Source: an uncultured Lentisphaeraceae bacterium
GTDB lineage: Bacteria > Verrucomicrobiota > Kiritimatiellia > RFP12 > UBA1067
Length of the DNA: 64,000 nt
NCBI GenBank assembly: GCA_964386865.1
Contig: CAYLUN010000017.1
Span: forward strand, 6,565-70,564
Reading direction: 5' to 3'
Shown piece by piece: positions 16,646 to 33,323 of the stretch; within the stretch, counting starts at the first letter, position 1, and every line of letters starts with the position of its first letter. Both the position numbers and the translations under genes were made by a program. The notes beneath the pieces are model-generated. The model did not search any database. It was not told the origin of the DNA and saw only the letters and a program-made list of their open reading frames with translations.

Positions 16646-16678
16646 TGTACTGCCTCCTGAATCCTGCCTTGTTGCCAA

Positions 16679-17569
16679 CTACCGGTGGATGTTCAGTTCC
16701 GGAACCGTGTAGAGCCGATTGACTAGCCCGTCAGGGTATTGGCCGCGGTCGTAGACCACCCGCGCCTGCAAGGTTCTGTTGACGTTGTCAGTCGACAGGA
16801 CGACGCAGTCGTAAACCCCGGGAAGCGCGCGCACCCGCTGCACAAACAGGGTCGGGTAATCCGCATGCGTGCTCAGGAACCACGCGTTAGCCACCGTGAC
16901 GATGCAGATTTCGAGTTTGCCGCCGACCTTCAGGCACGCGTCCGCCAGCCAGGGCGAGACGGTGGCGGCCATCTTGTCGGCCACGCTCTTGAGCGCGTCG
17001 CCCTCGCCGCGTCCGGGCGCGCCGGTCACGTCGAACCGGTTGCGCGCCACTAGGTCGACCATCACCTGCCGCGTCAGCGCGTTCAGCTCCGGCGAGCGCG
17101 TGACCGACGCGTCCACGTCGCCCTTGTAGACCGACCGCGTTCCCCTGGCGTTCAGCGGCTGGCTGGTGACCTCCAGATTTGCGACAATCTCAGACGGCCC
17201 TTGGTAAACCACGCGGTAGCCGGCTGCCGCCAAGGCGCCCTGCACACCGGTTCCCAGCAGGGTCGCCACCTGCCTGGCCTCCGCCCCCTGCGCCGACGAC
17301 TGCACCAGCACGCGCGTCTGCTCGAGCACGGCCGAGGCCGTGGCCGTCTGCGTCTGCGCGGGCCGCAGATCCACCGCCGGCGGACGCGCCCCCACGCCCA
17401 GCACCAGGCCGGGCTGCTGGGTCGCCACCGCCCCGGGACTCGACACGACCGGCACCCCGCCGGCCGTCACCGTCGTCTGATACCCCGACCCGCGCGTATC
17501 GATCGTCCGGCACCCCGTCAGCGCCAGCGCCAGCGCGCCGGCAAACGTCACGTACATCACTTTATTCAT
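16679..17569 (-). CDS. hypothetical lipoprotein
   Basis: 'ALALALTGCRT' lipobox. 296 aa. Confidence 0.55.
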   Translation of the reverse strand: MNKVMYVTFAGALALALTGCRTIDTRGSGYQTTVTAGGVPVVSSPGAVATQQPGLVLGVGARPPAVDLRPAQTQTATASAVLEQTRVLVQSSAQGAEARQVATLLGTGVQGALAAAGYRVVYQGPSEIVANLEVTSQPLNARGTRSVYKGDVDASVTRSPELNALTRQVMVDLVARNRFDVTGAPGRGEGDALKSVADKMAATVSPWLADACLKVGGKLEICIVTVANAWFLSTHADYPTLFVQRVRALPGVYDCVVLSTDNVNRTLQARVVYDRGQYPDGLVNRLYTVPELNIHR

Positions 17570-17587
17570 GGCTGAACCTTCTTTCCC

Positions 17588-18817
17588 TTAGCGAACCCGG
17601 AACATCTGTTTGAGGAACATGCCCACAATCAGAACACCAATCATAACACCGACCGCCAATACGATATTCCGGAATGTGGAAAGCGCCTGCAATTGGTCTA
17701 GTATCTGAATCCAAAACGGCACCTTGAAATCTCCGATTCCTGCTGCATTGGCCACTCCTGCGAAATTGTTGTTGATGTCAAGGAACTTCGCCTCCATGCC
17801 GATCCTGACCCGCACGAGATTGACCTTGACAGGAGTATAAGAGGCAGTCGCCTTGCTGATGCAGGCACCTACCGGGTCAACAATCGTCAGAGGAGAGACC
17901 TCCAACATCGAAACGCCGCCTTTCAAGACTGCGACCTTGTCGCCGGGTTTGTCGCGGGCCCCGCCGATATCGGTCACCATCCTCTTTAAGACCGAATTGC
18001 TAACCTGACGGTTCGTGCCCGCCCTTTCGCGCAGAAACCGCGCTGTCATCCGGTCGCTCGCACTGCCGTTGGGCAAGCTCAACATGCTGACCGACGCATC
18101 CTTACCCGACACACCGCGGATAAACGCCTCAGTCATTGCCCGGCCCAGCGGCCCTGCGAACGGAACAACCAGCACCTGATAACCGGAGAGTCGGGATAAA
18201 TCTGCTTTGGTAATAGCATCCTGAACGGCCAGATCGATCGCATTACGCGCGGCGTAGTTCACGACCTCGTACTCCGGGCCGGGGTCATCGTAAATGCCCT
18301 CCACCGTGCCCGCCCACAGCCGCTCCGCCGTATCGATGCGGATCAGGCGCAGCGAGACGCGCACGCTGGCCTTACCGGCCTTATCCTCGACTCCCAGCAC
18401 CTGTCCGATGGCGAAGGCGTCCGCCATCTTGAAGACGCCCAGACGCGGCAGCGTCTTCGGGTCGTAGTCGCCGAAATCGGTGGCCGCATCGAAGAACCGG
18501 TCGACCTCGGCCCACTCCCCCGCGTGATCCTGATGCGTCAGAAACTGGAACTCCGTCGGAGCCTGCACCAGCCCGTTCTCGAACACGGTGGCGATCTCGG
18601 CATACTCCGAAATGTCCGCGCTGCCCCGCATCAGCTTCACAAACGCGATCTTCTTGACGTTCACGCGGCTGTCCGTAGCCATCTGCATGACGGCCTGATA
18701 GGCGGCGTCCTCAGCCGCAAATGAAAGCTCCCGCGTCCCGGCGGCAACCGTCAGCGCGGTTGCTAGAAAACCCGCGGCGCCCATCGCGGCGGCCGCAAGA
18801 CCAGTGAAACGTTTCAT
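17588..18817 (-). CDS. hypothetical exported protein with C-terminal transmembrane anchor
   Basis: Signal peptide 'MKRFTGLAAAAMGAAGFLATALTVAAG'. C-terminal TM 'IVLAVGVMIGVLIVGMFL'. Confidence 0.55.
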   Translation of the reverse strand: MKRFTGLAAAAMGAAGFLATALTVAAGTRELSFAAEDAAYQAVMQMATDSRVNVKKIAFVKLMRGSADISEYAEIATVFENGLVQAPTEFQFLTHQDHAGEWAEVDRFFDAATDFGDYDPKTLPRLGVFKMADAFAIGQVLGVEDKAGKASVRVSLRLIRIDTAERLWAGTVEGIYDDPGPEYEVVNYAARNAIDLAVQDAITKADLSRLSGYQVLVVPFAGPLGRAMTEAFIRGVSGKDASVSMLSLPNGSASDRMTARFLRERAGTNRQVSNSVLKRMVTDIGGARDKPGDKVAVLKGGVSMLEVSPLTIVDPVGACISKATASYTPVKVNLVRVRIGMEAKFLDINNNFAGVANAAGIGDFKVPFWIQILDQLQALSTFRNIVLAVGVMIGVLIVGMFLKQMFRVR

Positions 18818-18927
18818 GCTGTTGCTCCTTTGTTTGTTGCCCGCCGGCGTGACCCGGCGAAAAGCGGTTGTCGATTCAGAAGTCAGAAGACCGGAGTCAG
18901 AATCCAGAATGTGGTACGGCCGACGCA

Positions 18928-19866
18928 TCATTCCGCCTCCTGACATTTATTGCCCATCTTTTCTTTCCCCTTCTGACTCCTGTCTCTTGTCTCCTGACTC
19001 CTGGCTTCTGACTCCTGACTTCTGACTTCTGACTCCTGACCTCCGACCTCTGGCTCCCCGAACCCGGCCAGCTCGGCGTCGAAGTCCCCCGCGTCGCGGT
19101 CGCGCCGCCGGCCGGCCTTGTCGAGGTCGCCCATCGCGTCCTGCACCGACTCCGCATCGCCCGCCTTGTCCTCGATATCGTCGGCCAGCCGGTCGATCAG
19201 GTCCTCGCTCACCTTGCCGCGCAGCCCGTGCGCGATCAGCTCCATAAAGCGGCCCTTGACCGTCAGGATCGTCTGCTCATTCTCCGACAGCAGCAGGAAC
19301 TCCCGCTCCAGACTCTTGTAGTGCGCCATCAGCGTCTGCAGCTCAGTCTTCAGCATCCGCTGCCGCACGGGCGAGGCGCTCTCGTAGGCTTTCTTCTTGG
19401 AGGCGATCTGCGCGTGGAGCGCCTCCATCTCGCCCGTGACCTTTTCCCGCCGGGCGCCGTTCTCGTCGAGGCTGGCGTGGAGCGACCCTAGCATCGCCTC
19501 GGGCGAGCGGTCCACGTGGATCTTGGCCCACAGGGCCTTCGCGCCCGCGCCGATCTTGCCGGCCAGCGCCACGGTCTCGGCCATGGCCTTCTTCGCCAGC
19601 TCCGCCGTGGCCTTACGCACGAGCCGCTGCTCCTCCGCGCGGTTCTCGGCATGCTCCTGACCTCCGACCTCCGACTTCCGACCTCCGACCTCCGTGCTCA
19701 TAACCTTCTCCTTCCAGCCGTGCTCCGGGCACCGCCCGTTACCCTGACCCGCGTGCAGCCGGCAGAACGCCGCCCCGCACCCCGCCTCCACGCACCGACC
19801 ACCCACCGCCCACCGGTTCGGCAGCCCTTGCCCGCACACGCAACATGTCTCGGTCTTGTCGCTCAT
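18928..19866 (-). CDS. N-terminal zinc-ribbon protein with coiled-coil ESCRT-III/PspA-superfamily-like region (tentative)
   Basis: N-terminus 'CCVCGQ...C...CGAAFCRLH...CPEH' has zinc-ribbon cysteines. Helical core and acidic tail 'SEDLIDRLADDIEDKAGDAESVQDAMGDLD...DFDAELAGF' resemble ESCRT-III/CHMP C-terminal regions. In-frame heptanucleotide-repeat linkers encode 'SEVGGQE/SEVRSQE'. Confidence 0.5.
   Translation of the reverse strand: MSDKTETCCVCGQGLPNRWAVGGRCVEAGCGAAFCRLHAGQGNGRCPEHGWKEKVMSTEVGGRKSEVGGQEHAENRAEEQRLVRKATAELAKKAMAETVALAGKIGAGAKALWAKIHVDRSPEAMLGSLHASLDENGARREKVTGEMEALHAQIASKKKAYESASPVRQRMLKTELQTLMAHYKSLEREFLLLSENEQTILTVKGRFMELIAHGLRGKVSEDLIDRLADDIEDKAGDAESVQDAMGDLDKAGRRRDRDAGDFDAELAGFGEPEVGGQESEVRSQESEARSQETRDRSQKGKEKMGNKCQEAE
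18972..19058. repeat. Heptanucleotide tandem repeat (CTGACTY units, about 12 copies) encoding the C-terminal SEVRSQE-type low-complexity tail
   Basis: Tandem 'ctgactc ctgtctc ttgtctc ctgactc ctggctt ctgactc ctgactt ctgactt ctgactc ctgacct ccgacct ctggctc'. Confidence 0.7.
19657..19697. repeat. Heptanucleotide tandem repeat (about 6 copies) encoding the 'STEVGGRKSEVGGQE' linker between zinc ribbon and coiled coil
   Basis: Tandem 'ctgacct ccgacct ccgactt ccgacct ccgacct ccgtgct'. Confidence 0.65.
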
Positions 19867-20034: not shown

Positions 20035-21225
20035 TCACTCCTGTATCCTGCGAAGCGCCTCGTCAATGCCGCAGACGCGCACCTCCGGCGCGACCTCGTA
20101 TCCGGCGTCCTCCATGGGGCAAATTACGAAGGCCTTCGCCGGCTTCAGCAGCTCCAATGCGGCACGTCCTCCGCGAGTCAGTTCAGGCGCGAGCGATGCC
20201 TTGAATTCAAAGGCTAACCGCCGCGTGCCCCGCTCGAGCACAAGATCCACCTCCTGCCCGTTGGAGTCCCGGTAGAACGACGCCCGCCAGCGAGGCAGCG
20301 CTGTGACGATCTGCTCCAGGCACCACCCCTCCCAAGACGCGCCGAGACACGGATGCCCCAGCAGGGCGTTCTGATCCTCCAGTTCCAACAGGCTGTGCAA
20401 AACGCCGCTGTCCCTGAAATAGAGCTTAGGCGCCTTGATCAGACGCTTCTTCAGATTCGCTTGCAATGGCGGCAGCAGCCGCACCATGTACATCGACTCC
20501 AGCAGCCCAAGCCAGCTACGGACCGCCGTGTGGCTGACGCCCAATGACTCTCCCAGCCGCGAGCTATTCAGCAACTGGCCGTGAACATGCGCCGCCATCC
20601 GCCACAGCCGACCCAGCGTCTCGGAATAGGCCACGCCCCCGCACAGCGGAACATCCCGCTCGAGAAACGTTGCCGCGAACTGCTCCCGCCACAACAGGCT
20701 CGCCTCTTCGGAGCCGGCCAGCAGACTCCCCGGAAAACCGCCCCGCCGCCAATGCGTGAAGAAGGCCGGACGGTCTCCCGCCACGCTCCCGCGCACCTCC
20801 CTCCACTGGAACGGCGTCAAGTGGTGATAGCGGATGCGCCCCGCCAGCGTCTCCGAACTCTGCCTGAGCAGCTCCGGCGCCGCCGACCCCAGAAGAAGGA
20901 AACGCAGCCCCAGCGGGCGGTCATCGGCCAGCGCCCTCAGCACGGGAAACAGACCGGGCTGGCGCTGCACCTCGTCCAGACAGACCAGCCGCCCTTTCTG
21001 CTGGCTCAGGAACAGTTCGGGGTCGCGCAGCCGCCGCGCGTGCGAGGGCCGCTCCAGATCGAGATAGACCGACTGGCCCTTCCACTCGGACAGCAGGTGT
21101 CGGGCAAGTGTCGACTTGCCGCACTGGCGCGGACCGAGCAGCGCCGTGACCGGCACCTCCTTCAGCGAACGCAACAAATCACCGCTAATCTCTCGTTCCA
21201 CAAAGTTATGTGTTTTGCCATCCAT
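20035..21225 (-). CDS. AAA+ ATPase, DUF4143-domain family (ATP-binding protein)
   Basis: Walker A 'LLGPRQCGKSTL', Walker B 'LVCLDEVQ' and 'LLGSAAPELL...SETLAGR'. Paralog of 27182..28336. Confidence 0.8.
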   Translation of the reverse strand: MDGKTHNFVEREISGDLLRSLKEVPVTALLGPRQCGKSTLARHLLSEWKGQSVYLDLERPSHARRLRDPELFLSQQKGRLVCLDEVQRQPGLFPVLRALADDRPLGLRFLLLGSAAPELLRQSSETLAGRIRYHHLTPFQWREVRGSVAGDRPAFFTHWRRGGFPGSLLAGSEEASLLWREQFAATFLERDVPLCGGVAYSETLGRLWRMAAHVHGQLLNSSRLGESLGVSHTAVRSWLGLLESMYMVRLLPPLQANLKKRLIKAPKLYFRDSGVLHSLLELEDQNALLGHPCLGASWEGWCLEQIVTALPRWRASFYRDSNGQEVDLVLERGTRRLAFEFKASLAPELTRGGRAALELLKPAKAFVICPMEDAGYEVAPEVRVCGIDEALRRIQE

Positions 21226-21471: not shown

Positions 21472-22377
21472 TCATGGAACTGGGGCCAGAACCACGCGGA
21501 AGCCGATCCAACTTTTCTTGGCCGTAGAAACATCCCCTGAATAGTACGCTGATCGACAGTCTGCGGCGTCAGAGCACCAACCCCCGCCCCGGTACTCAGG
21601 GCAGTGGAAGTTTTGGGGCCTCCGAGAATACACGTAATGGCACCACTCCGACACGTTTCCGTGCATGTCGTAAAGCCCCCAGGCGTTGGCCCGCTTCTGC
21701 CCCACCGCATGGTGACCCGTGCGTCCATAGCCATCACCGTACCAAGCCATGTCGTCGAGCTTGCCCGCATACGGTTCGGTTGTCCCCGCCCGGCACGCGT
21801 AAGGCCCTGTCGTCCCCGCGCGACACGCGTATTCCCACTCCGCCTCCGTCGGCAGACGGAAGCGACATGCGGGCGGGGTACGTATCTGCGCACCCGCCAG
21901 CATCCCGTTCAACGTCCGCAAGAACGTCTGGCAATCATCCCAACTCACACCCTCCACCGGTAATGCCGCGTTCTTGAAATGGCTGGGGTTATCCCCCATG
22001 ACCCGCTTCCATTGCCGCTGCGTCACTTCATACGCGCCCAACCAAAACCCTTTCGTCAGAGTCACACTGTGCTGCACCTCGTCCCCGCCCCGGTGATCTT
22101 CGGTTAACGGGCTGCCCATAAGAAACTCGCCCGGCGGCACCCAACGCAACTCAAGATTCACTCCGTCCCCCAGATCGAGCGTCAACGGGTTGCCGAGGTT
22201 GTATGTCGTCAGATTGGTTACAACCACAGCACTCGTGCTGTTTGGCAATGCCGGTGCTTGTGCCGACGCCAGACTGCTGTTTGTCAAACTCTGCCCGCCT
22301 TGTCCTAACTCATAAAGTTCTTTCACTTCAGCAGCGGAAAGCGCACGGTTATATCCGCCTTCGCAACGGTTCGGCAA
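21472..22377 (-). CDS. FGE-sulfatase (SUMF1/formylglycine-generating-enzyme family) domain protein
   Basis: 'RWVPPGEFLMGSP', 'GFWLGAYEVTQRQW', 'RLPTEAEWEYACRAG', 'GLYDMHGNVSEWC'. Contains an internal 10-aa direct duplication 'ACRAGTTGPY/ACRAGTTEPY'. Confidence 0.85.
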   Translation of the reverse strand: MPNRCEGGYNRALSAAEVKELYELGQGGQSLTNSSLASAQAPALPNSTSAVVVTNLTTYNLGNPLTLDLGDGVNLELRWVPPGEFLMGSPLTEDHRGGDEVQHSVTLTKGFWLGAYEVTQRQWKRVMGDNPSHFKNAALPVEGVSWDDCQTFLRTLNGMLAGAQIRTPPACRFRLPTEAEWEYACRAGTTGPYACRAGTTEPYAGKLDDMAWYGDGYGRTGHHAVGQKRANAWGLYDMHGNVSEWCHYVYSRRPQNFHCPEYRGGGWCSDAADCRSAYYSGDVSTAKKSWIGFRVVLAPVP

Positions 22378-22420
22378 TCCTATTCAGGCCCGGGGCGCAG
22401 CGCACAGGAAAACCAAACGG

Positions 22421-22807
22421 CTACCGAATCGTGAAAGGCACCTTGCCGCTGATCTGTTTGGAGCCAGCTTGCCCTCCACCGAAATCCATCGATGACACCC
22501 ACACATCATATTCACCCTTCGGCAGCGATTTGAATGTGGTCTTTGTTTTTCCAAACAGCATGTTGTTCAAACCCTGATGGCTCTGACGATTGATTGCGAA
22601 GGCCGACGCATTAGCCAAAAGTTTGCTATCGCTTGTGACACAGGTCAGCGTCGCCGTTGTTCCCGACACAACAAGTTTGATTTGCACCTCATGTTTATCA
22701 GAGGCATCGCTTGTGTATGTCTGGCTCGGCGAACATCCCAGAATACACAGGACTGCTCCAAGCAGAAAACACCCAACCCAACCGTCCGTCGTTTTCCTGA
22801 TTCTCAT
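22421..22807 (-). CDS. small hypothetical lipoprotein
   Basis: 'VLCILGCSPSQ' lipobox. Lies in an AT-richer segment. Confidence 0.5.
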   Translation of the reverse strand: MRIRKTTDGWVGCFLLGAVLCILGCSPSQTYTSDASDKHEVQIKLVVSGTTATLTCVTSDSKLLANASAFAINRQSHQGLNNMLFGKTKTTFKSLPKGEYDVWVSSMDFGGGQAGSKQISGKVPFTIR

Positions 22808-23309
22808 CTCATCTGTCCTTTCATGACGCTTCGTGTTTTTGGTCGCCGGCGAAAGCGCGTCATACGTCTTTCGGCGGCGAATGTCTTGATGATATAAACA
22901 ACAGCCGCTAAATCAACCCGGCAGAAGCAAATCCATAACGACAACTATTGAAAGTAAACAAGACTCTATAGACCTTTACATTCGCAGTCGTTAGTTTGGT
23001 TTCTTTCATTGAATCCCCTTGAGTTCTTTCACCTGACTATCTGTCATAAAAACCTTGAAATGATAAACAAATGACCAAGCCAATTATTGCCGCGAAAGCA
23101 TTCAGCTCCGAACGCCTCACCCGCCGCCAGCGTGGCCTCTGGCGCAGTCGCGCCATGCGCCGCCAGCGTGCGTCTGTCACCCAGTGAACCTGTCTGGTCA
23201 GTATTCATTCGTATCCCTTGTTGTATCCGTTCACAGAGAATTCAACCCGTCTTCAGTAACGCGTTTCGCAGTTCAGCCGACGGACTTTTACATCCTGAAT
23301 ACTCAACTT

Positions 23310-25832
23310 TCACCGCGACAAGACGAGCCGGAACCCGCAGTTGGTGAGGCCAAGCGTTCCGCCGCCGGTGTAGCGACCCTCACACTGCAAGTAGCAGGAA
23401 CGGACGCAATACCACGACCCGCCGCGCCACGCACCGAACGTCGTTCCCGACACATCTGCGGCGCAACACTCCCACACGTTACCACCCACCCCATGCAATT
23501 TCCACGCATTCACCCCGCTCTTCTCGACCGGGCACGACACCAGATAACCGTCGTTATACTCGGCAATATAGGTCCCGAATTGTCCTTTAGATTCCTGTCC
23601 GCAGTAGTTTCCAGCCTGCGGCGGCATGGAATTGCCCCACGGGTACTCGCGCCCATCGCCACACTGCGCGATAGTCAGCCACTCCTGTTCGGAGATCACC
23701 CGATAACGCAAACCTCCAAGCGTGCCTTTATCACGTTCCGTCAGCCACGACGCATACGCTTTCGCATCATCGAAATCCACCTGCGCGACTGGTTGACGAT
23801 CACCGTTCAGACTGTATCCTTGGTAGTCCTTACTGTTGTGTCTTGTTTCTTTCTTACGGTACTCTCCGTTTGTCACCTCGTATTTACCGACCCAGATCTT
23901 CAGCGCGGGCACCCATACAAATTCCATGCCCACCGCCGACGAGATCCACCCCTTTAGCATCGAAAGCTCCTGATCTCTCATGAAGGAGGCGATCTGGGTT
24001 CCGCGCGCTTTCACCTGCGCAGCCAAGACTTCGTCGGGCGCTGCGGTCAAGGCGGTCCTGTAAATGTCCACGGCTCCCTGCCAGTCTTTCCGGTCCTCGG
24101 CTTCGTTCCCTCGTTTCATGATCTCGTCGAAGGCGGCTTTCCTCTTCTCATAGGCGATGCGGTCGCCTGCTTTCTTTGCCCTCTCCAGCGCCTGCGTACG
24201 CTCGCTGTCCGTGGGTGCGGCAACAGCCGCGCTTTCGTACGCCGTCTGAGCCTTCGCATAGTCCCCGTTCTTTTCCATTTGTTGGGCTTCCGCAAGAAAG
24301 CGCTCGTATTCCGCCCGCTTGCGCGTAGACGTCCGATCAAGATCCCGCGCGTTTGCGACCCGGGCGAGCGCAGCCCTAACGTCTTCGGTGTTAATCAACT
24401 CGTTCGCCGCCTCGTAGGCTATGAGCGCCTCGGACCACTGACGGTTGGCCTCCGCAGCCTTGCCTTGTGTGATGAGCACGTCACGCCGCTCGCGCTTGAT
24501 CTTCATGCGTTCGGCTTCGGAAAGTCCGGCAATGAGATCTGACGAAGACGCCGACTTCGACCCGGACGTTTCTGTGACAGCCGTGCCCGCATGTGTCGCT
24601 GCTGGCCGAAGGTTACTTGATGATAATTCTGACTTCGGCGTGAGGGCCGCTAATGCCAACCACCCGACGGCCAGCACGGCCAGCGCCGCCGCGCCACCGA
24701 CCTGAACATGACGGTTTTTCAGGAGCTTCAGCCACCGCTGATCGCCCGGCTCACGCTCCAGACGTGCGATCTCTTTACGGACTTCATGTGCCGAGGCGAA
24801 GCGGCGGTCAGGAGGAGCCATCATGCGCTTGACCAGGCCGTCCAGGGCAGGCGGACAGCCTAACACCCGTTCGCTGGGCGTCTCCATGCCGGACGGCAGC
24901 TCGCCGGTCAGCAGTTCGAAAAGCATGACCCCCAAGGAGTAGATATCGGTCTGCGGGGTCACCTCCGTGCCCCGGCGCTGTTCCGGGCTCATGTAGTCCA
25001 TTGTCCCCACGATTTGACCCTGCATGGTCATCTGCGCGACTGACGGCCGCAGGGTGGGACGCTCACCCTGGCTCTCTTGCGAAGTCCGCATGCCGACCTC
25101 TATCGCCAGCCCCTGTTGGCCCAGGATGAGCGAACCCGACTGGCTGCGGATGACGTCGCCGAGGATCTTCCCCAAGCCGAAGTCCGCAATCCGAGAGTGC
25201 CCCTGCTCGTCGAACAGGATGTTCTCTGGCTTGATGTCGCGATGGACAATGCCCTTGCCGTGCGCATACTCCAGACCGGCGCAGATCTCATCCACGACAC
25301 GCAGCGCCGTGCGCCACGGCAGACGCGTCCCGCGGGGATGCAGCTTCGCGCGCAGGCTGCCGCCGGGCAAGTACTCCATGATGAAGTAGTAGACGCCGTC
25401 CTGACAGCCGAAATCATGGATCTGGGTAATATTGGGGTGATGCAACTGGGCCAAGACCTTGGCCTCCTGATGAAACCGCTGCACGAGGTCCTGCTGCGAG
25501 CTGAAACCCTCCGGCATGGTCTTGAGGGCGCGCGACACCTTCAACTCGGTATGCTCGGTCAGCCAGACAGCCCCCATTCCGCCTTCACCAATTTTGGCGG
25601 TCACCCGATCCTTGCCGAAGACTCTGCCGACGAGATTCGTTCCACCAGGAACCGCGCTGGGGCCAATGGTCTTGTCCGTCCCGACGCTGGGCGCGGGTCT
25701 TCCAACCGACCGCGCATCAGGCACGCGGATGCGACCATTACAGGCGGGACATTCGATCGTCTCACCTCCCATGTCGGACGGTGCTTCCAAACGTTGCTTA
25801 CAGTGTGGACACAGGAAATATATATCCGTCAT
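23310..25832 (-). CDS. Zinc-ribbon Ser/Thr protein kinase fused to a C-terminal FGE-sulfatase (SUMF1) domain, single-pass membrane
   Basis: N-terminus 'CPHCKQRLEAP...CPACNGRI' is a zinc ribbon. Kinase motifs 'IGEGGMGAVW', 'HRDIKPENILF', 'DFGLG', 'SPEQ'. TM 'VGGAAALAVLAVGWLALAAL', then a TPR-like helical repeat region. C-terminal FGE fold almost identical to that of 12212..15031. Confidence 0.9.
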   Translation of the reverse strand: MTDIYFLCPHCKQRLEAPSDMGGETIECPACNGRIRVPDARSVGRPAPSVGTDKTIGPSAVPGGTNLVGRVFGKDRVTAKIGEGGMGAVWLTEHTELKVSRALKTMPEGFSSQQDLVQRFHQEAKVLAQLHHPNITQIHDFGCQDGVYYFIMEYLPGGSLRAKLHPRGTRLPWRTALRVVDEICAGLEYAHGKGIVHRDIKPENILFDEQGHSRIADFGLGKILGDVIRSQSGSLILGQQGLAIEVGMRTSQESQGERPTLRPSVAQMTMQGQIVGTMDYMSPEQRRGTEVTPQTDIYSLGVMLFELLTGELPSGMETPSERVLGCPPALDGLVKRMMAPPDRRFASAHEVRKEIARLEREPGDQRWLKLLKNRHVQVGGAAALAVLAVGWLALAALTPKSELSSSNLRPAATHAGTAVTETSGSKSASSSDLIAGLSEAERMKIKRERRDVLITQGKAAEANRQWSEALIAYEAANELINTEDVRAALARVANARDLDRTSTRKRAEYERFLAEAQQMEKNGDYAKAQTAYESAAVAAPTDSERTQALERAKKAGDRIAYEKRKAAFDEIMKRGNEAEDRKDWQGAVDIYRTALTAAPDEVLAAQVKARGTQIASFMRDQELSMLKGWISSAVGMEFVWVPALKIWVGKYEVTNGEYRKKETRHNSKDYQGYSLNGDRQPVAQVDFDDAKAYASWLTERDKGTLGGLRYRVISEQEWLTIAQCGDGREYPWGNSMPPQAGNYCGQESKGQFGTYIAEYNDGYLVSCPVEKSGVNAWKLHGVGGNVWECCAADVSGTTFGAWRGGSWYCVRSCYLQCEGRYTGGGTLGLTNCGFRLVLSR

Positions 25833-25863: not shown

Positions 25864-27003
25864 TCACCCGAACCGCTGCCGCTTGAACCGCTCGAACTCC
25901 TCCAGCATGTCCGATGTAATAGAACTGGGCACCCGCTGCCGAGCCTCTTCGAAATCGGCCGGAGTCAGCACGGCCTCCGAATCGTCAGTGATCGCGCGGC
26001 CCAGCGCCAGGCGCTTCGCCGCATGCACGACCGCGGCCACGTCGCTTCCGGAGAAGCCCTCCAGCGATTCCGCCAGCGCGGCTGCATCCAAAGACGCGTC
26101 GCAGGCCGCATCCCCCAGATGCTTCCGGAAGATGCCCAGCCGCGCCTCGGCGTCCGGCGGGCCGATGTAGATCTTTTCGTCGAACCGCCCCGAGCGGAAC
26201 ACCGCTTCGTCGATCTCCCACGGCTTGTTGGTCGCGCCCAGTATCAGCAGCACGTTCTTCGAGTCGCGGAACCCGCCCACGTCCGCCAAGAACTGCGTCA
26301 CCAGCCGGTTGTCGGCCCCGGAGGTGCCGTCGTCGCGCTTGGGCAGCAGCGCCTCGATCTCGTCCAAGAATAGCACGGCCATGGGCTGCTCCTGCGCCGC
26401 GCGGATCAGCCGGCTCAGGCGCTGCTCCGACTCGCCGTACCACTTAGACCTGAGCTGCGCGCCCGAGGCGTAGTAGAACGGGCACTCGAGCACGCCCGCG
26501 ACCGCCTTGCCCAGCAGGGTCTTGCCCGTGCCGGGCGGGCCGTACACCAGCACGCCGCCGCCCGCGTTCAGGCCCAGCGACCGCGCCTTCTCGGGGCTCT
26601 TCATCGGATACACGACCATCTCGTGGATCACGCGCTTCGCGTCCGCCATGCCCGCGATGTCGTCGAAGTCCACGTCCGGCTTCTCCGCCACCAGCCACTC
26701 GTCGCCGTCGGCGGTTTCGACACTCGACTCCCGACCCGCGACGCCCGAGCCATCCCCAACTTTAGAACTCCCGCACTTCAGAACTCCAGAACTTCTCCCC
26801 CTTAGCTCCTCCGCCAGCGCCACCCAGCCCTCTGCGTCCCGCGCGTGCGCCTCCGCGACCGGGCCGGAGGTCCGCCCCGCCAGCGCGAAGCCGCATTCGG
26901 CCGCGCGCGCCGCCTCGGCCGCCGCCCGCGCGTAGTCGTGCGCCTTGACGAACTCCGCGCAGGCGTTCTCATGCCGCGTCTTGATGTCGCTCATCGACCG
27001 CAT
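25864..27003 (-). CDS. Vps4-like AAA ATPase (MIT-like N-terminal domain, meiotic-clade AAA, Vps4_C-like C-terminal helix)
   Basis: N-terminal three-helix region 'ENACAEFVKAHDYARAAAEAARAAECGF' is MIT-like. A low-complexity linker follows. AAA core 'VLVYGPPGTGKTLLGKAVA...ASGAQLRSKWYGESEQRLSRLIRAA...VLFLDEIEALL'. C-terminal 'ADFEEARQRVPSSITSDMLEEFERFKRQRFG' resembles the Vps4 C-terminal helix. Confidence 0.85.
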   Translation of the reverse strand: MRSMSDIKTRHENACAEFVKAHDYARAAAEAARAAECGFALAGRTSGPVAEAHARDAEGWVALAEELRGRSSGVLKCGSSKVGDGSGVAGRESSVETADGDEWLVAEKPDVDFDDIAGMADAKRVIHEMVVYPMKSPEKARSLGLNAGGGVLVYGPPGTGKTLLGKAVAGVLECPFYYASGAQLRSKWYGESEQRLSRLIRAAQEQPMAVLFLDEIEALLPKRDDGTSGADNRLVTQFLADVGGFRDSKNVLLILGATNKPWEIDEAVFRSGRFDEKIYIGPPDAEARLGIFRKHLGDAACDASLDAAALAESLEGFSGSDVAAVVHAAKRLALGRAITDDSEAVLTPADFEEARQRVPSSITSDMLEEFERFKRQRFG

Positions 27004-27019: not shown

Positions 27020-27172
27020 TTAGCTGTTCAGGAGCAGGTCCCCGGCCGCCAAGCGCCGGCCCGCCGGGCCGGACCGGCCCGTACGCGTCGTGGGCGTGTC
27101 GCCCATGCTGTGGTCGTCTGGCGGCGGGTTCGCGCTGCCCAGCGTCTTTCGGTTGCCGATCAAGTTGTCCAT
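27020..27172 (-). CDS. small hypothetical protein (about 50 aa), not in the ORF track
   Basis: 'AAAGGAGCCCC-ATG' is a strong RBS. ORF reads MDNLIGNRKTLGSANPPPDDHSMGDTPTTRTGRSGPAGRRLAAGDLLLNS. It lies between the DUF4143 and Vps4-like genes. Confidence 0.25.
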   Translation of the reverse strand: MDNLIGNRKTLGSANPPPDDHSMGDTPTTRTGRSGPAGRRLAAGDLLLNS

Positions 27173-27181
27173 GGGGCTCCT

Positions 27182-28336
27182 TTAATTTTGCACTACACAT
27201 TCGACGGCCGGAACAGCCTCGACGTTCTCGGCCAGCGGATAGCGGCGGGTGCCCGCGTATACGACCTCTCCGCGAGTGATCACCCCGTCGGCCAGCCCAG
27301 CCAGCAGCCCCGACGCGTCGGTGCGCCCCACCGACGCGCCGCACTTGAACTCGTAGCCGATCCGCTCGCGGCCGCGGTCGACGATCAGATCGATCTCGGC
27401 CCCGGCCTGCGTCCGGTAGAACCAGAACTGGCTCGCCGCGCCGTTCTGCATCTCACGGGCGATCACCTGTTCCACGAGCAGGCCTTCCCAACTGGCGCCG
27501 CGCCGGGGCGACTGCAGCAGCTCAAGCCCGCTGCGTATCCCAAGCAGCGCGTGCAGCAGACCGCAATCGCGGATGTACAGCTTGGGCGACTTGACCAGCC
27601 GCTTACCTAGGTTGGCGTGCCAGGGCTGCAGACGGCGGACGAGGAAATGCCCTTCCAGAATGTCGAGATGGCTGCCGACCGTGTGATAGGTGACGCCGAG
27701 GGAGCGCCCCAGCTCGGACGCGTTGAGCAGCCCGCCATGCACATGCGCCAACATGCCCAAGAACCGCCGCATCTCCTGCGGCGAGGTTTTGAGCCCGTAG
27801 CCGGCCAGGTCGCGCTGAACCAGCGACTGGACATACTGCTCCAGCCAGCGCGCCCGCCGCTTCGCGTCAGACTGCAGGCAGACGTCGGGATACCCGCCCC
27901 GCAACCAGTACTCGTCCAGTCCGGATAGCTCTCCCGCCACCTCGGCGTACAGGAACGGTGTCAGCTCCACGACGCCCACCCGCCCGGCCAAGCTCTCGGA
28001 AACCTTCCGAACCAGGATCGGATTGACCGAGCCCAGCAGATAGAATCGGCCAGTCTTACTGCGCTCCTCGTCGATCACCGATCGCAGGACGGAGAAGAGG
28101 GCCGGCAACTCCTGCGCCTCGTCGAAAATCAGCGTGCCCGGCAGACGACTCAGCGCCAGCTCCGGGTCGCCGGCGAAAACGGCGTAATCCGACGGCCGCT
28201 CCAGGTCGAAGTACGTCCCTTTCAGAAACGCTTTCGCCAGCGTCGTCTTCCCGCACTGGCGCGGCCCGACGATCAGCACCGCCGGGAACTGCGCTGCCAT
28301 TTCAGAGACAAGGCTTGCTATCCGCCGTTTAATCAT
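27182..28336 (-). CDS. AAA+ ATPase, DUF4143-domain family (ATP-binding protein)
   Basis: Walker A 'LIVGPRQCGKTTL', Walker B 'LIFDEAQE' and 'LLGSVNPILV...SESLAGR'. Paralog of 20035..21225. Confidence 0.8.
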   Translation of the reverse strand: MIKRRIASLVSEMAAQFPAVLIVGPRQCGKTTLAKAFLKGTYFDLERPSDYAVFAGDPELALSRLPGTLIFDEAQELPALFSVLRSVIDEERSKTGRFYLLGSVNPILVRKVSESLAGRVGVVELTPFLYAEVAGELSGLDEYWLRGGYPDVCLQSDAKRRARWLEQYVQSLVQRDLAGYGLKTSPQEMRRFLGMLAHVHGGLLNASELGRSLGVTYHTVGSHLDILEGHFLVRRLQPWHANLGKRLVKSPKLYIRDCGLLHALLGIRSGLELLQSPRRGASWEGLLVEQVIAREMQNGAASQFWFYRTQAGAEIDLIVDRGRERIGYEFKCGASVGRTDASGLLAGLADGVITRGEVVYAGTRRYPLAENVEAVPAVECVVQN

Positions 28337-28612: not shown

Positions 28613-29242
28613 TCACTTCCCTCCGAGCAGCTCGCGCACCTTCTCCTGGCCGCCGCCGATGCGGCGCTCCATCTCCGAGGCCGTTTTCGCGCTGCCGCCG
28701 GAAATGTCGGCGGACACCTCCTGCTCCAGCGACTTCGACAGCTCCTCCAGCGACGGGATGTGGTCCTGCAGGTTGCCGGTCGCGCCCTCCATCTCCTTGT
28801 CGTAGAGCGAGGCCCAGAAGCGGTCGGCGTCCTGCTGCTCGCCGAGCAGCTCGCCGGCGGTGTCGAAGACGTCCTCGACCAGTTCGGGGTTAATGTCCGT
28901 GACCTTGTTGACCGCGGCCAGCGCGGTGGCGAACTCGGCGTCGGTGCCGGCGGTCTCCATCTTCATCAGGTACTGCTCGAAGACCCAGCGCTTCTGCTCG
29001 AGCTTGGTCACCAGCACCTGCGCAGCGCGGTAGCTGGTCAGCGCCCGCTGCGCCGCGGCCTTCTTCCCCTCCTTGAGCGCGTCGCGGGCTTTCAGCCAGT
29101 CCGCCTCCGCGTCCTTCTCCATGCGCTTCGCGCGATCCTTCACGTCCTGGATCGCGTTCTCCGCCTGCCGATACGCGCGCCGGCGGTCCTTGCGCACCGC
29201 GCGCTCTTTTTCCTTCTTCGTCTTGATGAATAGAAATGCCAT
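28613..29242 (-). CDS. ESCRT-III (Snf7/CHMP family)-like protein
   Basis: 209 aa from 'MAFLFIKTKKEKERAVRKDRRRAYRQAENAIQDVKDRAKRMEKDAEADWLKARDALKEGKKAAAQRALTSYRAAQVLVTKLEQKRWVFEQYLMKMETAGTDAEFATALAAVNKV...ELVEDVFDTAGELLGEQQD'. Colinear with CHMP2/Vps2-type proteins ('MDLLFGRRKTPEE...LDRE...KKxAKxGxxxAARILAKxLVRTR...QxxxMAxAMKGxTKAM...', acidic tail). Start chosen at 'MAFLF' because the upstream part is the heptamer-repeat spacer. Confidence 0.8.
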   Translation of the reverse strand: MAFLFIKTKKEKERAVRKDRRRAYRQAENAIQDVKDRAKRMEKDAEADWLKARDALKEGKKAAAQRALTSYRAAQVLVTKLEQKRWVFEQYLMKMETAGTDAEFATALAAVNKVTDINPELVEDVFDTAGELLGEQQDADRFWASLYDKEMEGATGNLQDHIPSLEELSKSLEQEVSADISGGSAKTASEMERRIGGGQEKVRELLGGK

Positions 29243-29322: not shown

Positions 29323-30927
29323 TCACAGCCCGTACTGCGCAAACGCCCGCACATCGATCGTCTTGCCGCCGAGGGTCACCGGCGAGCCCGGCGTCAGCCA
29401 GCCAGACGAGCCGCCGGAGCGCCACGAGAAAGCCCCTTGCTCATAGCAGATCACCGCGCCCGAGCAGCCGGGGATCACCTCGCCGAGATCGAGGCAGGCC
29501 CACAGGAGCGCGTAGCATTCCGGCACGCTGTCCGTCCTGCGCAGCACGACAGCCGGAACGCGCCCGCGGTGGCAGCTGTGTTCGCCGCGCCCGACGCAGG
29601 CCGCGCAGTGCGACGCGTCAAAGAAGCAGCCGTGAGCCGTCAGGCCGAAGTCGTGCGCCGCCGCCGTGCCTGCAAGCCCGAGCGACGCCCGTCTCGGAAA
29701 GGTGTCGACCGGGAAGCGCGTCGCGCCGTGGACCTCATGGCCCTGCCAGAAGGTTCCGCACGAGGAGGGCTTTCTCCTGCCGCACTCATCTGTCGTGCCG
29801 TCGTGGATCACGCAGTCGCCGCCCTCCAGCTCGATCATGCAGTGGAACTTGCTGATCCGCTCGCCCGTCATTCCCGGCTCTTTCCCTGCGCCGCCGAACA
29901 GGCGCGTGACAACGCCGTTCTCGCGGTTGCGGCCCAAGGTCAGGCGGTGTCCGGCAAGCAGATGCACGAGCCTGCCCCCGTCGCTCAGGGTCAGCCGGCT
30001 GGCCTGGCTCCCGGCAGGCGGCGCCGAGAGCCTCGGCGTAACCGGGACACACTCTTCCTCGAGCAGGGAGACCATGCGGTACGCCCGCTGGTCGGTCTTC
30101 AAGAGATTCAGCAGTTCCGTCAGGGAGTGGGCGGCCCCGTTATGGGCGAACGTGCCCACCACATCCGCCGCATTCTGGGACAGATGCACATCGGCCGCGT
30201 GCCCGGTCCTAATGTCGTTGGTGATGTTGAAAACGATGTTTTCCGCGACCTGCCTGACCGAGCTTTCGGCCGGATAAACATACAGCTCGGTGTTGGCGGC
30301 GCACTTGACCGCGCACCGGTCGTTCTTGAAGCGCAGGCTGAGCCCGACCGCATAAGCCCCCTGCTTCAGCGGGGGGATTGTCACGCTGAACTCGCCCGGC
30401 TTGAAGATCTTCGGCTTTTGCCAGGTCACCGGATGGATCTCCACCCCGGCGACGCCGCGCAGGAACAGCTCCAGGCGGACGTCTTGGATGCTCGCTTCGA
30501 GCGAGGTCAGCCGCACGCGGAACAGGCCGTAGGTCTCGGCAATGCCGAACACCAGAGAGTCCGTTTCAAGCCGCAGCCACGGGCTCTCGTCGGAGCCCTC
30601 CGAGCCGCCCTCAGCCGGCGCGGCCGCCCGCCGGTCGCCGGAGGCGAAGCCGTCCTTCTCGCGGCCGAGCGGCGCGGGGCAAGCGGGGTCTAGGACGATC
30701 ACGCGCGCCGGCCGCTCGGCCTGCGCGTGCATGATGACGCGCACGCCCTCCTGCGGCGCAGGCTCCGGCTCCGGCGCCACCGGACACGGCGGCACAGCAG
30801 GGGCTTTGGTCGCACAGGTCGAGGTGGAGGGCTTTTCCGCTCCGGCCTCCTGCGGAGTCCCGCACGCATTGCAGAAGGCTCCCGCATCGGTCAGCTTGCC
30901 ACATGCTAAACAGGTCACCCGTGCCAT
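29323..30927 (-). CDS. Zinc-ribbon / FHA-domain protein
   Basis: N-terminus 'CLACGKLTDAGAFCNACG' is a zinc ribbon. Central 'HRLTLGRNRENGVVTRLFG...ISKFHCMIELEGGDCVIHDGTTDE' has the FHA pattern (GR...R.H......G...I.D..S.NGT). Confidence 0.75.
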   Translation of the reverse strand: MARVTCLACGKLTDAGAFCNACGTPQEAGAEKPSTSTCATKAPAVPPCPVAPEPEPAPQEGVRVIMHAQAERPARVIVLDPACPAPLGREKDGFASGDRRAAAPAEGGSEGSDESPWLRLETDSLVFGIAETYGLFRVRLTSLEASIQDVRLELFLRGVAGVEIHPVTWQKPKIFKPGEFSVTIPPLKQGAYAVGLSLRFKNDRCAVKCAANTELYVYPAESSVRQVAENIVFNITNDIRTGHAADVHLSQNAADVVGTFAHNGAAHSLTELLNLLKTDQRAYRMVSLLEEECVPVTPRLSAPPAGSQASRLTLSDGGRLVHLLAGHRLTLGRNRENGVVTRLFGGAGKEPGMTGERISKFHCMIELEGGDCVIHDGTTDECGRRKPSSCGTFWQGHEVHGATRFPVDTFPRRASLGLAGTAAAHDFGLTAHGCFFDASHCAACVGRGEHSCHRGRVPAVVLRRTDSVPECYALLWACLDLGEVIPGCSGAVICYEQGAFSWRSGGSSGWLTPGSPVTLGGKTIDVRAFAQYGL

Positions 30928-32948: not shown

Positions 32949-33323
32949 TTACTTGCCCCTCGTGGCGAGCCCGGCCGAGCCATTGGCTCCCGCTTCCGGC
33001 CCCTTATGCTCCCTGCAGACCCTGACACCTTGCCGCGCCCAGCAATCGAAGCACACCGGCGCGCCGCAAACCGTGCAAGCCTGCTGTAGAGACCCCTTGC
33101 TGCGGTAGAACGTGCCACAGGTCGCGCAGGTTCCGCCCTCGGGCGACATCTGCTTGCTGCGCTCCAGATACGCGTTCAGATCCGTCCGGGAGACCCGGTA
33201 CAGCTTGCCCAGCCGCGCGGCGGGCAGTTCGCCCGCACGCACCATGCGGTAGATGAGCTGGTAGGTCACTCCCATCTCGTCCGCAACCTCTTCCAAGCTC
33301 AAGTGCTCTTTATCCGTCGGCAT
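32949..33323 (-). CDS. Excisionase-family HTH DNA-binding protein with C-terminal zinc ribbon
   Basis: 'LSLEEVADEMGVTYQLIYRMVRAGELPAARLGKLYRVSRTDLNAYLE' (HTH_17/excisionase-type). C-terminus 'CATCG...CTVCGAPVCFDCW...C' is a zinc ribbon. Preceded by promoter copy 2. Confidence 0.7.
   Translation of the reverse strand: MPTDKEHLSLEEVADEMGVTYQLIYRMVRAGELPAARLGKLYRVSRTDLNAYLERSKQMSPEGGTCATCGTFYRSKGSLQQACTVCGAPVCFDCWARQGVRVCREHKGPEAGANGSAGLATRGK

Follow-up and report, generated by a model that had tools for sequence, protein, structure and literature searches.

Receptor kinases with short FGE-fold sensor modules in a conserved SPFH/FHA-like/Snf7-like/AAA gene cluster of an uncultured Lentisphaeraceae bacterium

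A 64,000-nt stretch of DNA from an uncultured Lentisphaeraceae bacterium (assembly GCA_964386865.1, contig CAYLUN010000017.1, positions 6,565 to 70,564 of the forward strand; hereafter the window) encodes two proteins, K2 (23310..25832) and K1 (12212..15031), in which a Ser/Thr kinase is joined to a domain of the formylglycine-generating enzyme (FGE) type. Both kinases retain their catalytic motifs and are followed by a single transmembrane helix, and the C-terminal module has kept the FGE fold and lost the catalytic cysteine pair of the enzyme. The end of this module is hypervariable, with the codon bias known from diversity-generating retroelements (DGRs), and the genes lie in a cluster which also encodes SPFH, FHA-like, Snf7-like and AAA+ proteins in an order shared with related loci. 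On balance we favour, as fairly probable, the reading that K1 and K2 are bitopic receptor kinases with variable ligand-binding sensors, acting via FHA-like readout on the Snf7-like and AAA proteins at SPFH patches.

Architecture and kinship of the two kinases

The genes and their parts, with the basis for each, are as follows.
23310..25832, minus strand: K2, a zinc-ribbon receptor Ser/Thr kinase with TPR stalk and short FGE/C-type-lectin sensor, 840 aa (open reading frame and translation, Pfam)
25734..25811, minus strand: N-terminal zinc ribbon of K2, residues 8-33, CPHC..CPAC (read directly from the sequence)
24777..25607, minus strand: kinase domain of K2, with an activation-segment insert of ~35-40 residues (motif scan and orthologue alignment)
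24639..24707, minus strand: single transmembrane helix of K2, residues ~376-398 (Kyte-Doolittle scan; basic residues N-terminal to the helix)
23973..24515, minus strand: predicted periplasmic TPR-like helical region of K2 (Pfam TPR_2 E 1.4e-9 in three stretches, TPR_14 E 4e-8)
23313..23933, minus strand: short FGE-fold (C-type-lectin-like) module of K2, predicted to be non-catalytic (AlphaFold model, Foldseek, family alignment)
23337..23411, minus strand: hypervariable segment of the K2 sensor resembling a DGR variable region (VR), residues 808-832, with 17 variable codons, all NNY
12212..15031, minus strand: K1, a second receptor Ser/Thr kinase of another subfamily with the same type of short FGE module, 939 aa
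12215..12853, minus strand: short FGE module of K1

Both open reading frames (ORFs) are present as the initial annotation gave them, and each encodes a Pkinase domain (Pfam E 1e-44, 153 bits in K2; E 1e-39, 137 bits in K1) and a C-terminal FGE-sulfatase domain (E 4e-18 in K2, E 2e-19 in K1). A Kyte-Doolittle scan gives one strongly hydrophobic segment per protein, at residues 376-394 of K2 (mean 1.96) and 339-357 of K1. The common layout that had been claimed for the pair thus holds for the kinase, the single transmembrane helix and the C-terminal FGE fold, but not for the TPR region: TPR_2 matches K2 only, and the corresponding stretch of K1, helical by eye, has no TPR hit in Pfam. The zinc ribbon that had been noted at the N-terminus of K2 is there (CPHC...CPAC) and is kept in 7 of 8 orthologues (P0002-P0008). 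Ahead of the FGE module, K1 residues ~630-705 (window 12900..13150) form a beta-rich stretch (LEIVVEVDGQRVGAKVSDGREISTAPCTYTL..YVFEVSY) that is PEGA-like in look; it has no Pfam match, and P0121 has a similar stretch.

By motif, K1 and K2 are catalytically intact Hanks-type Ser/Thr kinases. The initial annotation had raised the possibility of pseudokinases, and the motif set proved complete in both: K2 has a glycine loop GEGGMGAV (82-89), K104, E123, HRDIKPEN (197-204), DFG (217-219) and SPE (282-284), and K1 has GQGGMGVV (52-59), K74, HRDVKPSN (197), DFG (217) and APE (246). The K2 motifs are conserved across an alignment of 8 orthologues, which also fixes the K2 start codon. The activation-segment insert ('GKIL.DV.RSQSGSL...MTMQGQ.VGTMDYMSPE') is kept in the orthologues too, and Pfam breaks the Pkinase match of K2 into two stretches. 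A protein identical to K2 is present in NCBI, Logan and JGI assemblies.

Judged by profile scores, neither kinase falls in a named NCBIfam equivalog, the best score being 227 bits for PknB_PASTA against a cut-off of 450. With PknB-PASTA-type receptor kinases they share a predicted cytoplasmic RD kinase with full motifs, a single transmembrane helix and a C-terminal sensor. They differ from these in the hypervariability of the sensor and, in the K2 subfamily, in the zinc ribbon and the activation-segment insert.

K1 and K2 had been described as paralogues whose last 230 residues are almost identical, and neither statement survives alignment. The last ~236 residues are 53% identical as protein and ~63% at the DNA level, and the kinase domains, which belong to different subfamilies, are just 28% identical. 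Each FGE module is closer to proteins of other organisms, its best relatives being stand-alone proteins with 68% (K2) and 62% (K1) identity, vs 53% between K1 and K2. The K2 orthologues are zinc-ribbon kinases (43-58% identity over 66-78% of the length) that share the zinc ribbon, transmembrane helix, helical repeats and activation-segment insert. Because none of these orthologues has an FGE domain, the K2 module is best read as a lineage-specific addition. The K1 kinase domain is 52-55% identical to the kinases 3' of the AAA gene in three syntenic loci (L025, L026 and L027; related loci are numbered with an L). By these comparisons, K1 and K2 are different kinases bearing the same kind of sensor module, not recent paralogues.

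The sensor module and its hypervariable segment

An AlphaFold (AF2) model of the K2 module, built on 76 family members, reaches a pLDDT of 94 and a pTM of 0.91. Its top Foldseek neighbours are ToxD, PvdO and FGE (TM-scores 0.63-0.65, E about 1e-10, and probability 1.0 for the FGEs, i.e., those of human, T. curvata and S. coelicolor). Because the model is confident and its neighbours are ToxD, PvdO and true FGEs, we regard the predicted FGE fold of the K2 module as sound. The module resembles the three FGEs in overall fold (TM about 0.65 and E about 1e-9 in Foldseek) and in the scaffold motifs WEW/WEC, RGGSW and GFR; it differs from them in lacking the catalytic Cys pair, in its truncated N-terminal subdomain, in its predicted extracytoplasmic position and fusion to a kinase, and in having a hypervariable loop at the would-be active site.

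A search with the K2 module retrieves a large family of ~210-residue short modules from Lentisphaerae, Planctomycetes and metagenome-assembled genomes (MAGs). Most members are proteins of 250-390 aa with PF03781 alone, and many of these stand-alone proteins start with a signal peptide or lipobox, which fits the extracytoplasmic position predicted for the kinase fusions. One member, P0147 (262 aa), has a zinc ribbon joined directly to the short FGE module, with neither transmembrane helix nor signal peptide, so in some organisms the module may also act inside the cell.

The Pfam FGE-sulfatase alignment begins at profile position 38 (K2) or 42 (K1) of 255, so the first ~40 positions are missing from this type of module, which has a 26-residue N-terminal deletion relative to the canonical domain. 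The motif GGSxxCxxxxC, which we take from SUMF1 and T. curvata FGE, without a residue-by-residue alignment, to mark the Cu(I)-binding catalytic Cys pair, occurs in 0 of 119 members of the module family, whose consensus is RGASWxxxxxxxLRC. K1 has Leu at the first catalytic Cys position and no Cys at either extra position; K2 has CxxxC at hypervariable positions, with Cys809 and Cys813 found in 7% and 2% of the family. A check of these cysteines had been suggested in the initial annotation against a supposed stand-alone FGE (21472..22377): that sequence has CxxxxxC, and CxxxxC is missing from K1 and all 119 family members. The annotation's view that the FGE fold here serves as a ligand-binding or sensor domain, not as a sulfatase maturase, is borne out by the lost Cys pair and the missing profile positions. 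The module is thus predicted to be a non-catalytic, C-type-lectin-like ligand-binding domain and not a formylglycine-generating enzyme.

It is very improbable that the modules are instead periplasmic FGEs or related oxidases which mature the organism's sulfatases while the kinase reports on or regulates their activity: the significant Pfam match, the FGE fold, the Cys of K2 at the first catalytic position with two further Cys close by, and the abundance of sulfatases in Kiritimatiellales (PMC6388578) would suit such a role, but the family has no CxxxxC pair, K1 has no extra cysteines at all, those of K2 lie at hypervariable NNY positions and are found in 2-7% of the family, the domain lacks its N-terminal part, and the closest solved relatives include the non-FGE proteins ToxD, PvdO, PorK and TvpA. 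The usual annotation as 'kinase / sulfatase-modifying enzyme' would therefore mislead for a large PVC (Planctomycetes-Verrucomicrobia-Chlamydiae) family, the module being a predicted non-enzymatic binder.

Variability is concentrated at the end of the module, a region that the initial annotation overlooked. Of the 30 columns with the highest entropy across the aligned family, 17 fall within the last 33 residues. The variable positions of K2 are 808-814, 819, 821-824, 827 and 829-832; these columns hold 15-18 residue types and have an entropy of about 3.5 bits, whereas the mean elsewhere is 1.36. Between them stands an invariant scaffold (W807, L815, R820 and G833-F-R-L) that is 84-100% conserved. 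The first variable stretch is the loop which holds the catalytic cysteines in a real FGE.

The codons at these positions are strongly biased. We compared the DNA of eight distinct modules (those of K1 and K2, a pair from L025, and single modules from L029, L030, L033 and L050), in which NNY codons account for 130 of 144 in the variable columns vs 234 of 496 (47%) in the other columns of the same 80 codons (p = 2e-22); the background in five window genes is 43%. In four-fold degenerate codons the amino acid leaves the third base free, so a count restricted to them (56 of 60 NNY at variable positions vs 119 of 292, or 41%, elsewhere; p = 3.6e-15) indicates that the bias holds apart from residue choice. 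All 17 variable codons are NNY in K2 and in five other homologues, and 13 of 17 are in K1. The residues that they encode are all among the 15 reachable from AAY, save three Glu at NNR codons. Taken together, hypervariability and NNY bias are, on this codon evidence, the known footprint of adenine-directed mutagenesis by a DGR.

A DGR inside the window was considered and rejected. Sensitive blastn (word size 7) with the 3' ends of K1, K2 and the sequence at 21472..22377 finds no template repeat in the 64 kb, the sole match of the K1 and K2 ends being to each other, and six-frame scans find neither an AAY-rich stretch nor a second VR-like frame there. A crude scan for reverse transcriptase (RT) motifs finds no RT-like motif in 61 related loci, nor was a template repeat found in them, and there is no RVT Pfam match among the scanned subset of window ORFs or in the gene tables of the related loci. 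Ongoing diversification of K2 was likewise rejected, as three members of its 90% cluster share an identical variable segment. Since the window holds no DGR and the sampled K2 copies are identical, the K2 segment would be either diversified by a DGR elsewhere in the genome or a well-preserved fossil. The partly decayed NNY pattern of K1 suggests that its segment is older or inactive.

Two elements of this picture are already known, i.e., the architecture of a Ser/Thr kinase with FGE-sulfatase, which is listed for the 'Proteo1' family in an atlas of bacterial Ser/Thr kinases (bioRxiv 10.1101/2025.01.12.632604), and the status of kinase-CLec (C-type lectin) proteins as DGR targets. No class of DGR targets is larger than that of the FGE-type lectin domains, which includes kinase fusions and targets remote from the element (PMC5758913), and the multidomain variable protein met most often in cyanobacteria is a CLec joined to a serine kinase at its N-terminus (PMC7517822). 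A close comparison is with DGR variable proteins of the FGE/C-type-lectin kind, including the kinase-CLec fusions (T. denticola TvpA, PDB 2Y3C; category b12 of Wu et al. 2018, PMC5758913; PMC7517822). K1 and K2 resemble these in the N-terminal Hanks kinase and C-terminal FGE-type lectin fold, in variable positions confined to the last ~35 residues and interleaved with an invariant scaffold ending in GFR(L/V), in NNY variable codons with AAY-reachable residues, and in the many stand-alone paralogues of the module. They differ in having no template repeat, reverse transcriptase or Avd within the 64 kb or the related loci, in the absence of variation among sampled K2 copies, in being membrane-spanning with a lectin module predicted to lie outside the cell, and in the loss of the N-terminal ~40 positions from the module. 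The host type (PVC) and the setting in an SPFH/FHA/Snf7/AAA cluster also set them apart from the known kinase-CLec proteins.

The conserved gene cluster and its possible role

The cluster around the kinases comprises the following features, given in the direction of transcription.
33352..33381: promoter-like site upstream of the HTH_17 gene, TTGACA-18-TAAAAT, an 11/12 match
32949..33323, minus strand: HTH_17 DNA-binding protein, the first gene of the cluster (Pfam HTH_17 E 5.5e-14; same slot in L025-L027)
31166..32836, minus strand: SPFH/Band-7 protein with a double zinc ribbon (PF01145, 38.7 bits vs a cut-off of 23.6; N-terminal Zn_Ribbon_1 and DZR)
29323..30927, minus strand: protein with a zinc ribbon and a probable FHA-like domain (Pfam FHA E 1.7e-3)
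28613..29242, minus strand: probable Snf7/ESCRT-III-like protein, 209 aa, whose true start is Met62 of the listed ORF (orthologue starts)
25864..27003, minus strand: single-domain AAA+ ATPase (Pfam AAA E 2.8e-35), called 'Vps4-like' in the initial annotation
15270..19866, minus strand: five accessory genes, g312 (Zn-finger coiled-coil), g452 (signal peptide and C-terminal transmembrane helix), g296 (lipoprotein), g225 and g164 (transmembrane)

Full-length orthologues of the AAA protein form more than 120 clusters (57-85% identity). The three closest loci with long flanks are L025 (in a 6.1-Mb genome), L026 and L027, and all have the order HTH_17, Band-7/zinc ribbon, FHA-like, Snf7-like, AAA, kinase-FGE, then one to three more kinases. 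Identity to the window proteins is 67-83% for Band-7, 42-49% for FHA-like, 83-92% for Snf7-like and 75-82% for AAA; HTH_17 was matched by position. The kinase-FGE gene lies 6-106 nt downstream of AAA and is of the K1 type, with 52-55% identity in the kinase domain, and the further kinases of these arrays mostly carry an FGE module.

The likeness extends beyond the kinases. L027 continues with DUF4143, g312, g452, g296, g225, g164 and another kinase-FGE in exactly the order of the window, and L028 has a permuted version of the same order. The run g312-g452-g296-g225-g164 recurs at 64-79% identity in L027 and 36-47% in L028, and none of the five has a Pfam match. The g312 family was tried as a second ESCRT-III and rejected, with an hhalign probability of 0.4% against the Snf7-like profile and no PDB matches.

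Among 33 loci with an AAA orthologue, 20 have one or more kinases and 4 more have an FGE module; the loci that lack a kinase are mostly short contigs. In 11 loci the distance from AAA to the start of a downstream kinase is at most ~300 nt (an upper bound taken from tblastn hit starts), and this kinase is always of the K1 type. The Snf7-like gene is directly upstream of AAA in L025-L027, L034, L035, L041, L046, L048 and L050. L001/L009, L003, L004 and L008 contain K2-type kinases as part of this system, in most cases behind a g312-like gene or a gene for a protein of 362-409 aa. This protein, conserved in L001, L003 and L004, has a signal peptide and a C-terminal transmembrane helix and no BLAST match in the window; by these features it is probably the equivalent of g452, for which homology was demonstrated in L027 and L028. 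The sensor modules of the arrays differ (long FGE, short FGE, LamG + LRR, Sel1, Lcl_C, Yip1 and TonB_2). We therefore describe the cluster as a conserved PVC-type gene system with one to four receptor kinases whose extracytoplasmic modules appear interchangeable. The order HTH–SPFH–FHA-like–Snf7-like–AAA–kinase(-FGE), found in many PVC-type metagenomic loci, supports the functional link between kinase, FHA and ESCRT-like proteins that had been proposed from the window alone. We found no description in the open-access literature of this SPFH/FHA/Snf7/AAA/kinase-array cluster, nor of a bacterial Snf7/AAA pair linked with FHA and Ser/Thr kinases.

The proteins themselves can be labelled with differing confidence. 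Band-7 and HTH_17 are secure assignments by Pfam. The Snf7-like assignment is probable: the Pfam Snf7 score of 23.3 bits (E 5.6e-5) is below the cut-off of 27.3, the L028 orthologue is an unmarked Snf7 hit, the orthologues are 62-92% identical and all start at the same Met, and a 6-sequence profile against the PDB has Snf7 or ESCRT-IIIB as all of its top five matches, among them yeast Snf7 and an Asgard ESCRT-IIIB, with weak E values (0.015-0.26). The FHA-like assignment is probable too. Its Pfam score is 19.2 bits (cut-off 20.7), the FHA core G-R...S-x-x-H...D...G is present with G332, R335, S359, H362 and D376 invariant in 6 orthologues, and the L001 protein at the same position, upstream of a g296-like gene, is an unmarked FHA hit. 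A profile of this protein against the PDB found no FHA structure, giving insignificant zinc-ribbon matches only (including ArnA, E 0.3).

The label 'Vps4-like' for the ATPase could not be upheld at the family level. Its best PDB match in both sequence and fold (Foldseek for the latter) is the D2 domain of Cdc48/p97, with 35-36% identity, and its NCBIfam scores are 205.6 bits for CDC48, 190 for PAN and 187.7 for CdvC (cut-off 650). In the AF2 model an N-terminal three-helix bundle (H4-20, H24-44, H48-73) is joined by a disordered linker to one AAA domain, after which comes a C-terminal helix. An MIT domain is not detectable in its N-terminus: there is no Pfam hit at E<=10 in the window protein or that of L009, and none in 120 orthologue clusters. 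Vps4_C is matched neither in the ATPase nor in its orthologues. The ATPase is thus Vps4-like in predicted layout and in having a Snf7 neighbour, membership of the Vps4 family not being demonstrated. MIT was also rejected for the kinases, where the faint MIT-like matches lie inside the periplasmic TPR regions and are regarded as TPR noise.

In the receptor-kinase reading that we favour, the kinase domains would be cytoplasmic, with the helical stalk and short FGE module in the periplasm. The FGE catalytic-Cys loop and the ~20 residues which follow it, all hypervariable, would form the binding surface of the sensor. Ligand binding would activate the kinase, and phospho-threonines on the kinase or on another cluster protein would be read by the FHA-like protein. 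The outcome of this readout would be recruitment or release of the Snf7-like polymer at membrane patches organised by SPFH, with recycling of the polymer by the AAA+ ATPase. The analysis shows the architecture, the catalytic motifs, the fold, the loss of FGE catalytic residues, the hypervariability with its codon bias, and the conservation of gene order; what the sensors bind, what the kinases phosphorylate, reading by the FHA-like protein and an output in membrane remodelling are the parts that we infer. If the scheme is right, the order SPFH, FHA-like, Snf7-like, AAA and kinase array is a candidate for phosphorylation-controlled membrane remodelling of the ESCRT-III type in bacteria, which has so far been proposed for archaeal ESCRT loci only. 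If the sensor is or was retroelement-diversified, evolvable surface receptors would be wired to a membrane machine.

Several points weigh against this reading. By sequence the ATPase is not Vps4-like, and the FHA and Snf7 assignments fall under the Pfam thresholds. Some of the metagenomic loci may be the same organism twice, so the locus counts are not independent. Neither the window nor ±10 kb of the related loci holds a phosphatase, a template repeat or a reverse transcriptase, and three K2 copies from three sources (one 90% cluster) have identical variable segments. The K2 orthologues of L002 and L005, and a distant partial match in L006, sit in unrelated contexts. In the window, K2 fills the K1-type slot after a visible rearrangement, so the K2-AAA coupling may be recent. 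Promoter scans of the sigma70 type may not apply to the host phylum.

Among the closest known systems are the archaeal ESCRT loci 'Main', 'Halo_FHA' and 'Meth_adaptin' (Makarova et al. 2024, PMC10936438), where an ESCRT-III-like protein and a single AAA+ ATPase are likewise encoded together with one or more membrane-associated Ser/Thr kinases, an FHA protein and a zinc-ribbon, coiled-coil SPFH protein. The likeness shown here is at the domain level. Unlike these loci, the window cluster is bacterial, its ATPase is Cdc48-D2-like with no detectable MIT, it has no ESCRT-I/II, CdvA or phosphatase genes, and its kinases bear lectin-type sensors in place of Ig/PCI. We propose only tentatively, as something doubtful though worth stating, that the cluster is a bacterial counterpart of the kinase/FHA/SPFH-associated archaeal ESCRT systems, with retroelement-diversified lectin-like sensors controlling an ESCRT-III-like polymer and its AAA+ recycler. 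If so, membrane remodelling (for repair, vesicles, uptake or defence) would be coupled to an evolvable repertoire of extracellular ligands.

Bacterial PspA/Snf7 systems (e.g., B. subtilis ydjFGHL; Ravi et al. 2024, PMC11237479) are a second point of comparison. They too have an ESCRT-III-superfamily protein adjoining a Band-7/zinc-ribbon protein, have an AAA+ partner in some lineages, and are proposed to act in sub-membrane remodelling or repair. In contrast to the window cluster, FHA has 0 occurrences in that survey, and the few uses of 'kinase' considered here mean histidine kinases (PMC11237479). A further difference is that the window protein matches Snf7, not PspA_IM30.

Another account, which concerns biological role, is compatible with the architecture described here and does not exclude the receptor-kinase reading, is that the cluster is a conflict or defence system, with lectin-like kinases sensing phage or invaders at the envelope and the SPFH, Snf7-like and AAA proteins as effector or repair arm. 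Arrays of two to four kinases with swapped sensor modules, the DGR-type hypervariable region and fast gene turnover with stubs would all fit such a role, as would the presence within the L009 cluster of an integrase-like gene and a ParE toxin pair, and the match of the DUF4143 genes to the PADLOC candidate PDC-S01 (E 3.6e-97). DGR-diversified FGE domains have moreover been described as sensors of bacterial conflict systems (PMC7159879, PMC10907252), but most of the DGR-linked sensors so described are cytoplasmic, whereas those of K1 and K2 are predicted to face the periplasm. The PADLOC matches of the kinases and AAA are generic (PD-T4-6, mad6, IetA), the Snf7-like, FHA-like, Band-7, g296 and g452 proteins match no PADLOC defence model, and the flanks are housekeeping genes with no att repeat of the adjacent tRNA-Leu. 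We consider this role possible though rather unlikely. Assignment to a PADLOC defence system was rejected, the matches being those generic kinase and AAA hits plus PDC-S01 for DUF4143.

Some further observations concern the cluster proteins. The Band-7 (31166..32836), FHA-like (29323..30927), g312 (18928..19866) and K2 proteins all begin with zinc ribbons or fingers of the Cys4 type, and these N-terminal ribbons of four predicted cytoplasmic proteins may be a common docking or membrane-proximal module. The HTH_17 protein has weak similarity (E 8e-4) to the winged helix-turn-helix of Rv2175c, which we take to be a substrate of the M. tuberculosis kinase PknL, and it could be a phosphorylation-controlled regulator of the operon. 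In L009 (16723..17580 and 12595..13103), a Lentisphaerae MAG, an integrase-like fragment flanks Snf7/AAA, and a ParE toxin pair lies between it and the K2 orthologue, a layout which hints that the Snf7/AAA module moves as a unit.

Junctions and rearrangements at the locus

The sequences between and beside the cluster genes include the following.
27182..28336, minus strand: DUF4143/AAA_14 ATPase gene between the Snf7-like and AAA genes (Pfam; PADLOC PDC-S01)
27020..27172, minus strand: stub 1, a 50-codon 5' remnant of a K1-type kinase gene between the DUF4143 gene and AAA (tblastn)
23044..23208, minus strand: stub 2, what is left of the 5' end of a further kinase gene, immediately downstream of K2
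22380..23043, minus strand: low-GC filler of ~0.7 kb between stub 2 and the FGE remnant (GC 0.45-0.53 vs about 0.66)
22421..22807, minus strand: orphan 128-aa lipoprotein ORF within the filler (lipobox ILGCS)
21472..22377, minus strand: FGE remnant, probably the 3' end of a kinase-(LamG)-FGE gene of the long canonical FGE-sulfatase type (Pfam FGE-sulfatase E 5e-39)
20035..21225, minus strand: second DUF4143/AAA_14 copy, 42% identical to the first
10578..10662, plus strand: tRNA-Leu, reported with a TAG anticodon, located immediately beyond the low-coordinate end of the 22-kb block of co-directional genes

The 31-nt gap that had been noted between AAA and K2 is as described: the AAA stop is at 25864 and the K2 ATG at 25832, with no sigma70-like site between them and GAGG 9 nt upstream of the ATG. 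The further claim that the FHA gene is in the transcription unit of K2 is right as to the strand; between FHA/Snf7 and AAA, however, come a terminator-like hairpin, a kinase stub and a DUF4143 gene. DUF4143 is absent from the Snf7-AAA junction in L025-L027, which have a short spacer there instead. L027 and L041 also carry a DUF4143 gene near kinases. The DUF4143 genes behave like independently inserted elements.

Stub 1 (MDNLIGNRKT...GRRLAAGDLLLNS, then a stop codon) aligns by tblastn with residues 1-65 of the L027 kinase (49% identity, E 7e-10) and stops just short of the glycine loop. Its homologue in L030 occupies the corresponding position, so stub 1 would predate the split of those lineages. 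Stub 2 matches the beginning of the L026 kinase gene at 14467 along 115 nt (73% nucleotide identity), and its translation, MNTDQTGSLGDRRTLAAHGATAPEATLAAGEAFG, aligns with ..ETESIGDERTFGAHGVAAPAASLAAGEVLG of that kinase. Both stubs break off before or at the glycine loop. The low-GC filler and its lipoprotein ORF have no homologue in any related locus and no Rfam match (an Rfam scan found the tRNA alone), and the filler appears to be foreign DNA inside a broken kinase-FGE gene. The other side of that break is probably the sequence which had been taken for a stand-alone FGE. It starts with TTG right after a stop codon and has a LamG-tail motif, lacks an ATG and a signal peptide, and is 53% identical to residues 443-699, i.e., the C-terminal 257 residues, of a kinase-FGE of the syntenic locus L027. 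Stubs, filler and broken gene together indicate that the kinase array turns over quickly, with K2 now in a slot filled elsewhere by a K1-type kinase.

These scars bear on one more alternative, which we judge improbable, namely that the proximity of K2 and AAA is an accident of rearrangement and that K2 signals independently, e.g., in general sensing of the envelope or of nutrients within a genome rich in kinases. The AAA-K2 block of the window has scars on both sides, and the gene after AAA is a K1-type kinase in 11 of the 11 other loci. Elsewhere, the L009 orthologue of K2 is convergent with AAA, with a toxin-antitoxin pair between, and the K2 relatives of L002, L005 and L006 named above have unrelated neighbours. 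Against an accident, the K2-type kinases of L001/L009, L003, L004 and L008 are within the system, beside Band7/FHA-like/g296-like or g312-like genes, and a kinase fills the slot after AAA in most loci with enough sequence, so that swapping kinases keeps the arrangement.

In L029 (3..545) and L030 (12..533) the gene upstream of AAA ends in a short FGE with 71-72% DNA identity to the K2 module. The AAA proteins of these two loci are the closest to that of the window (80-82%); the K2-like module is upstream of AAA there and downstream in the window.

A mobile island at the tRNA-Leu was considered and rejected, as the 3' end of the tRNA is not repeated in the window and housekeeping genes make up the flanks. 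Beyond the first gene of the cluster, 33609..35531 (plus strand) encodes a LamG_3/DUF2341 protein with Pfam support, and the 291-aa ORF that overlaps it (33600..34475, minus strand), which has no matches, is probably spurious.

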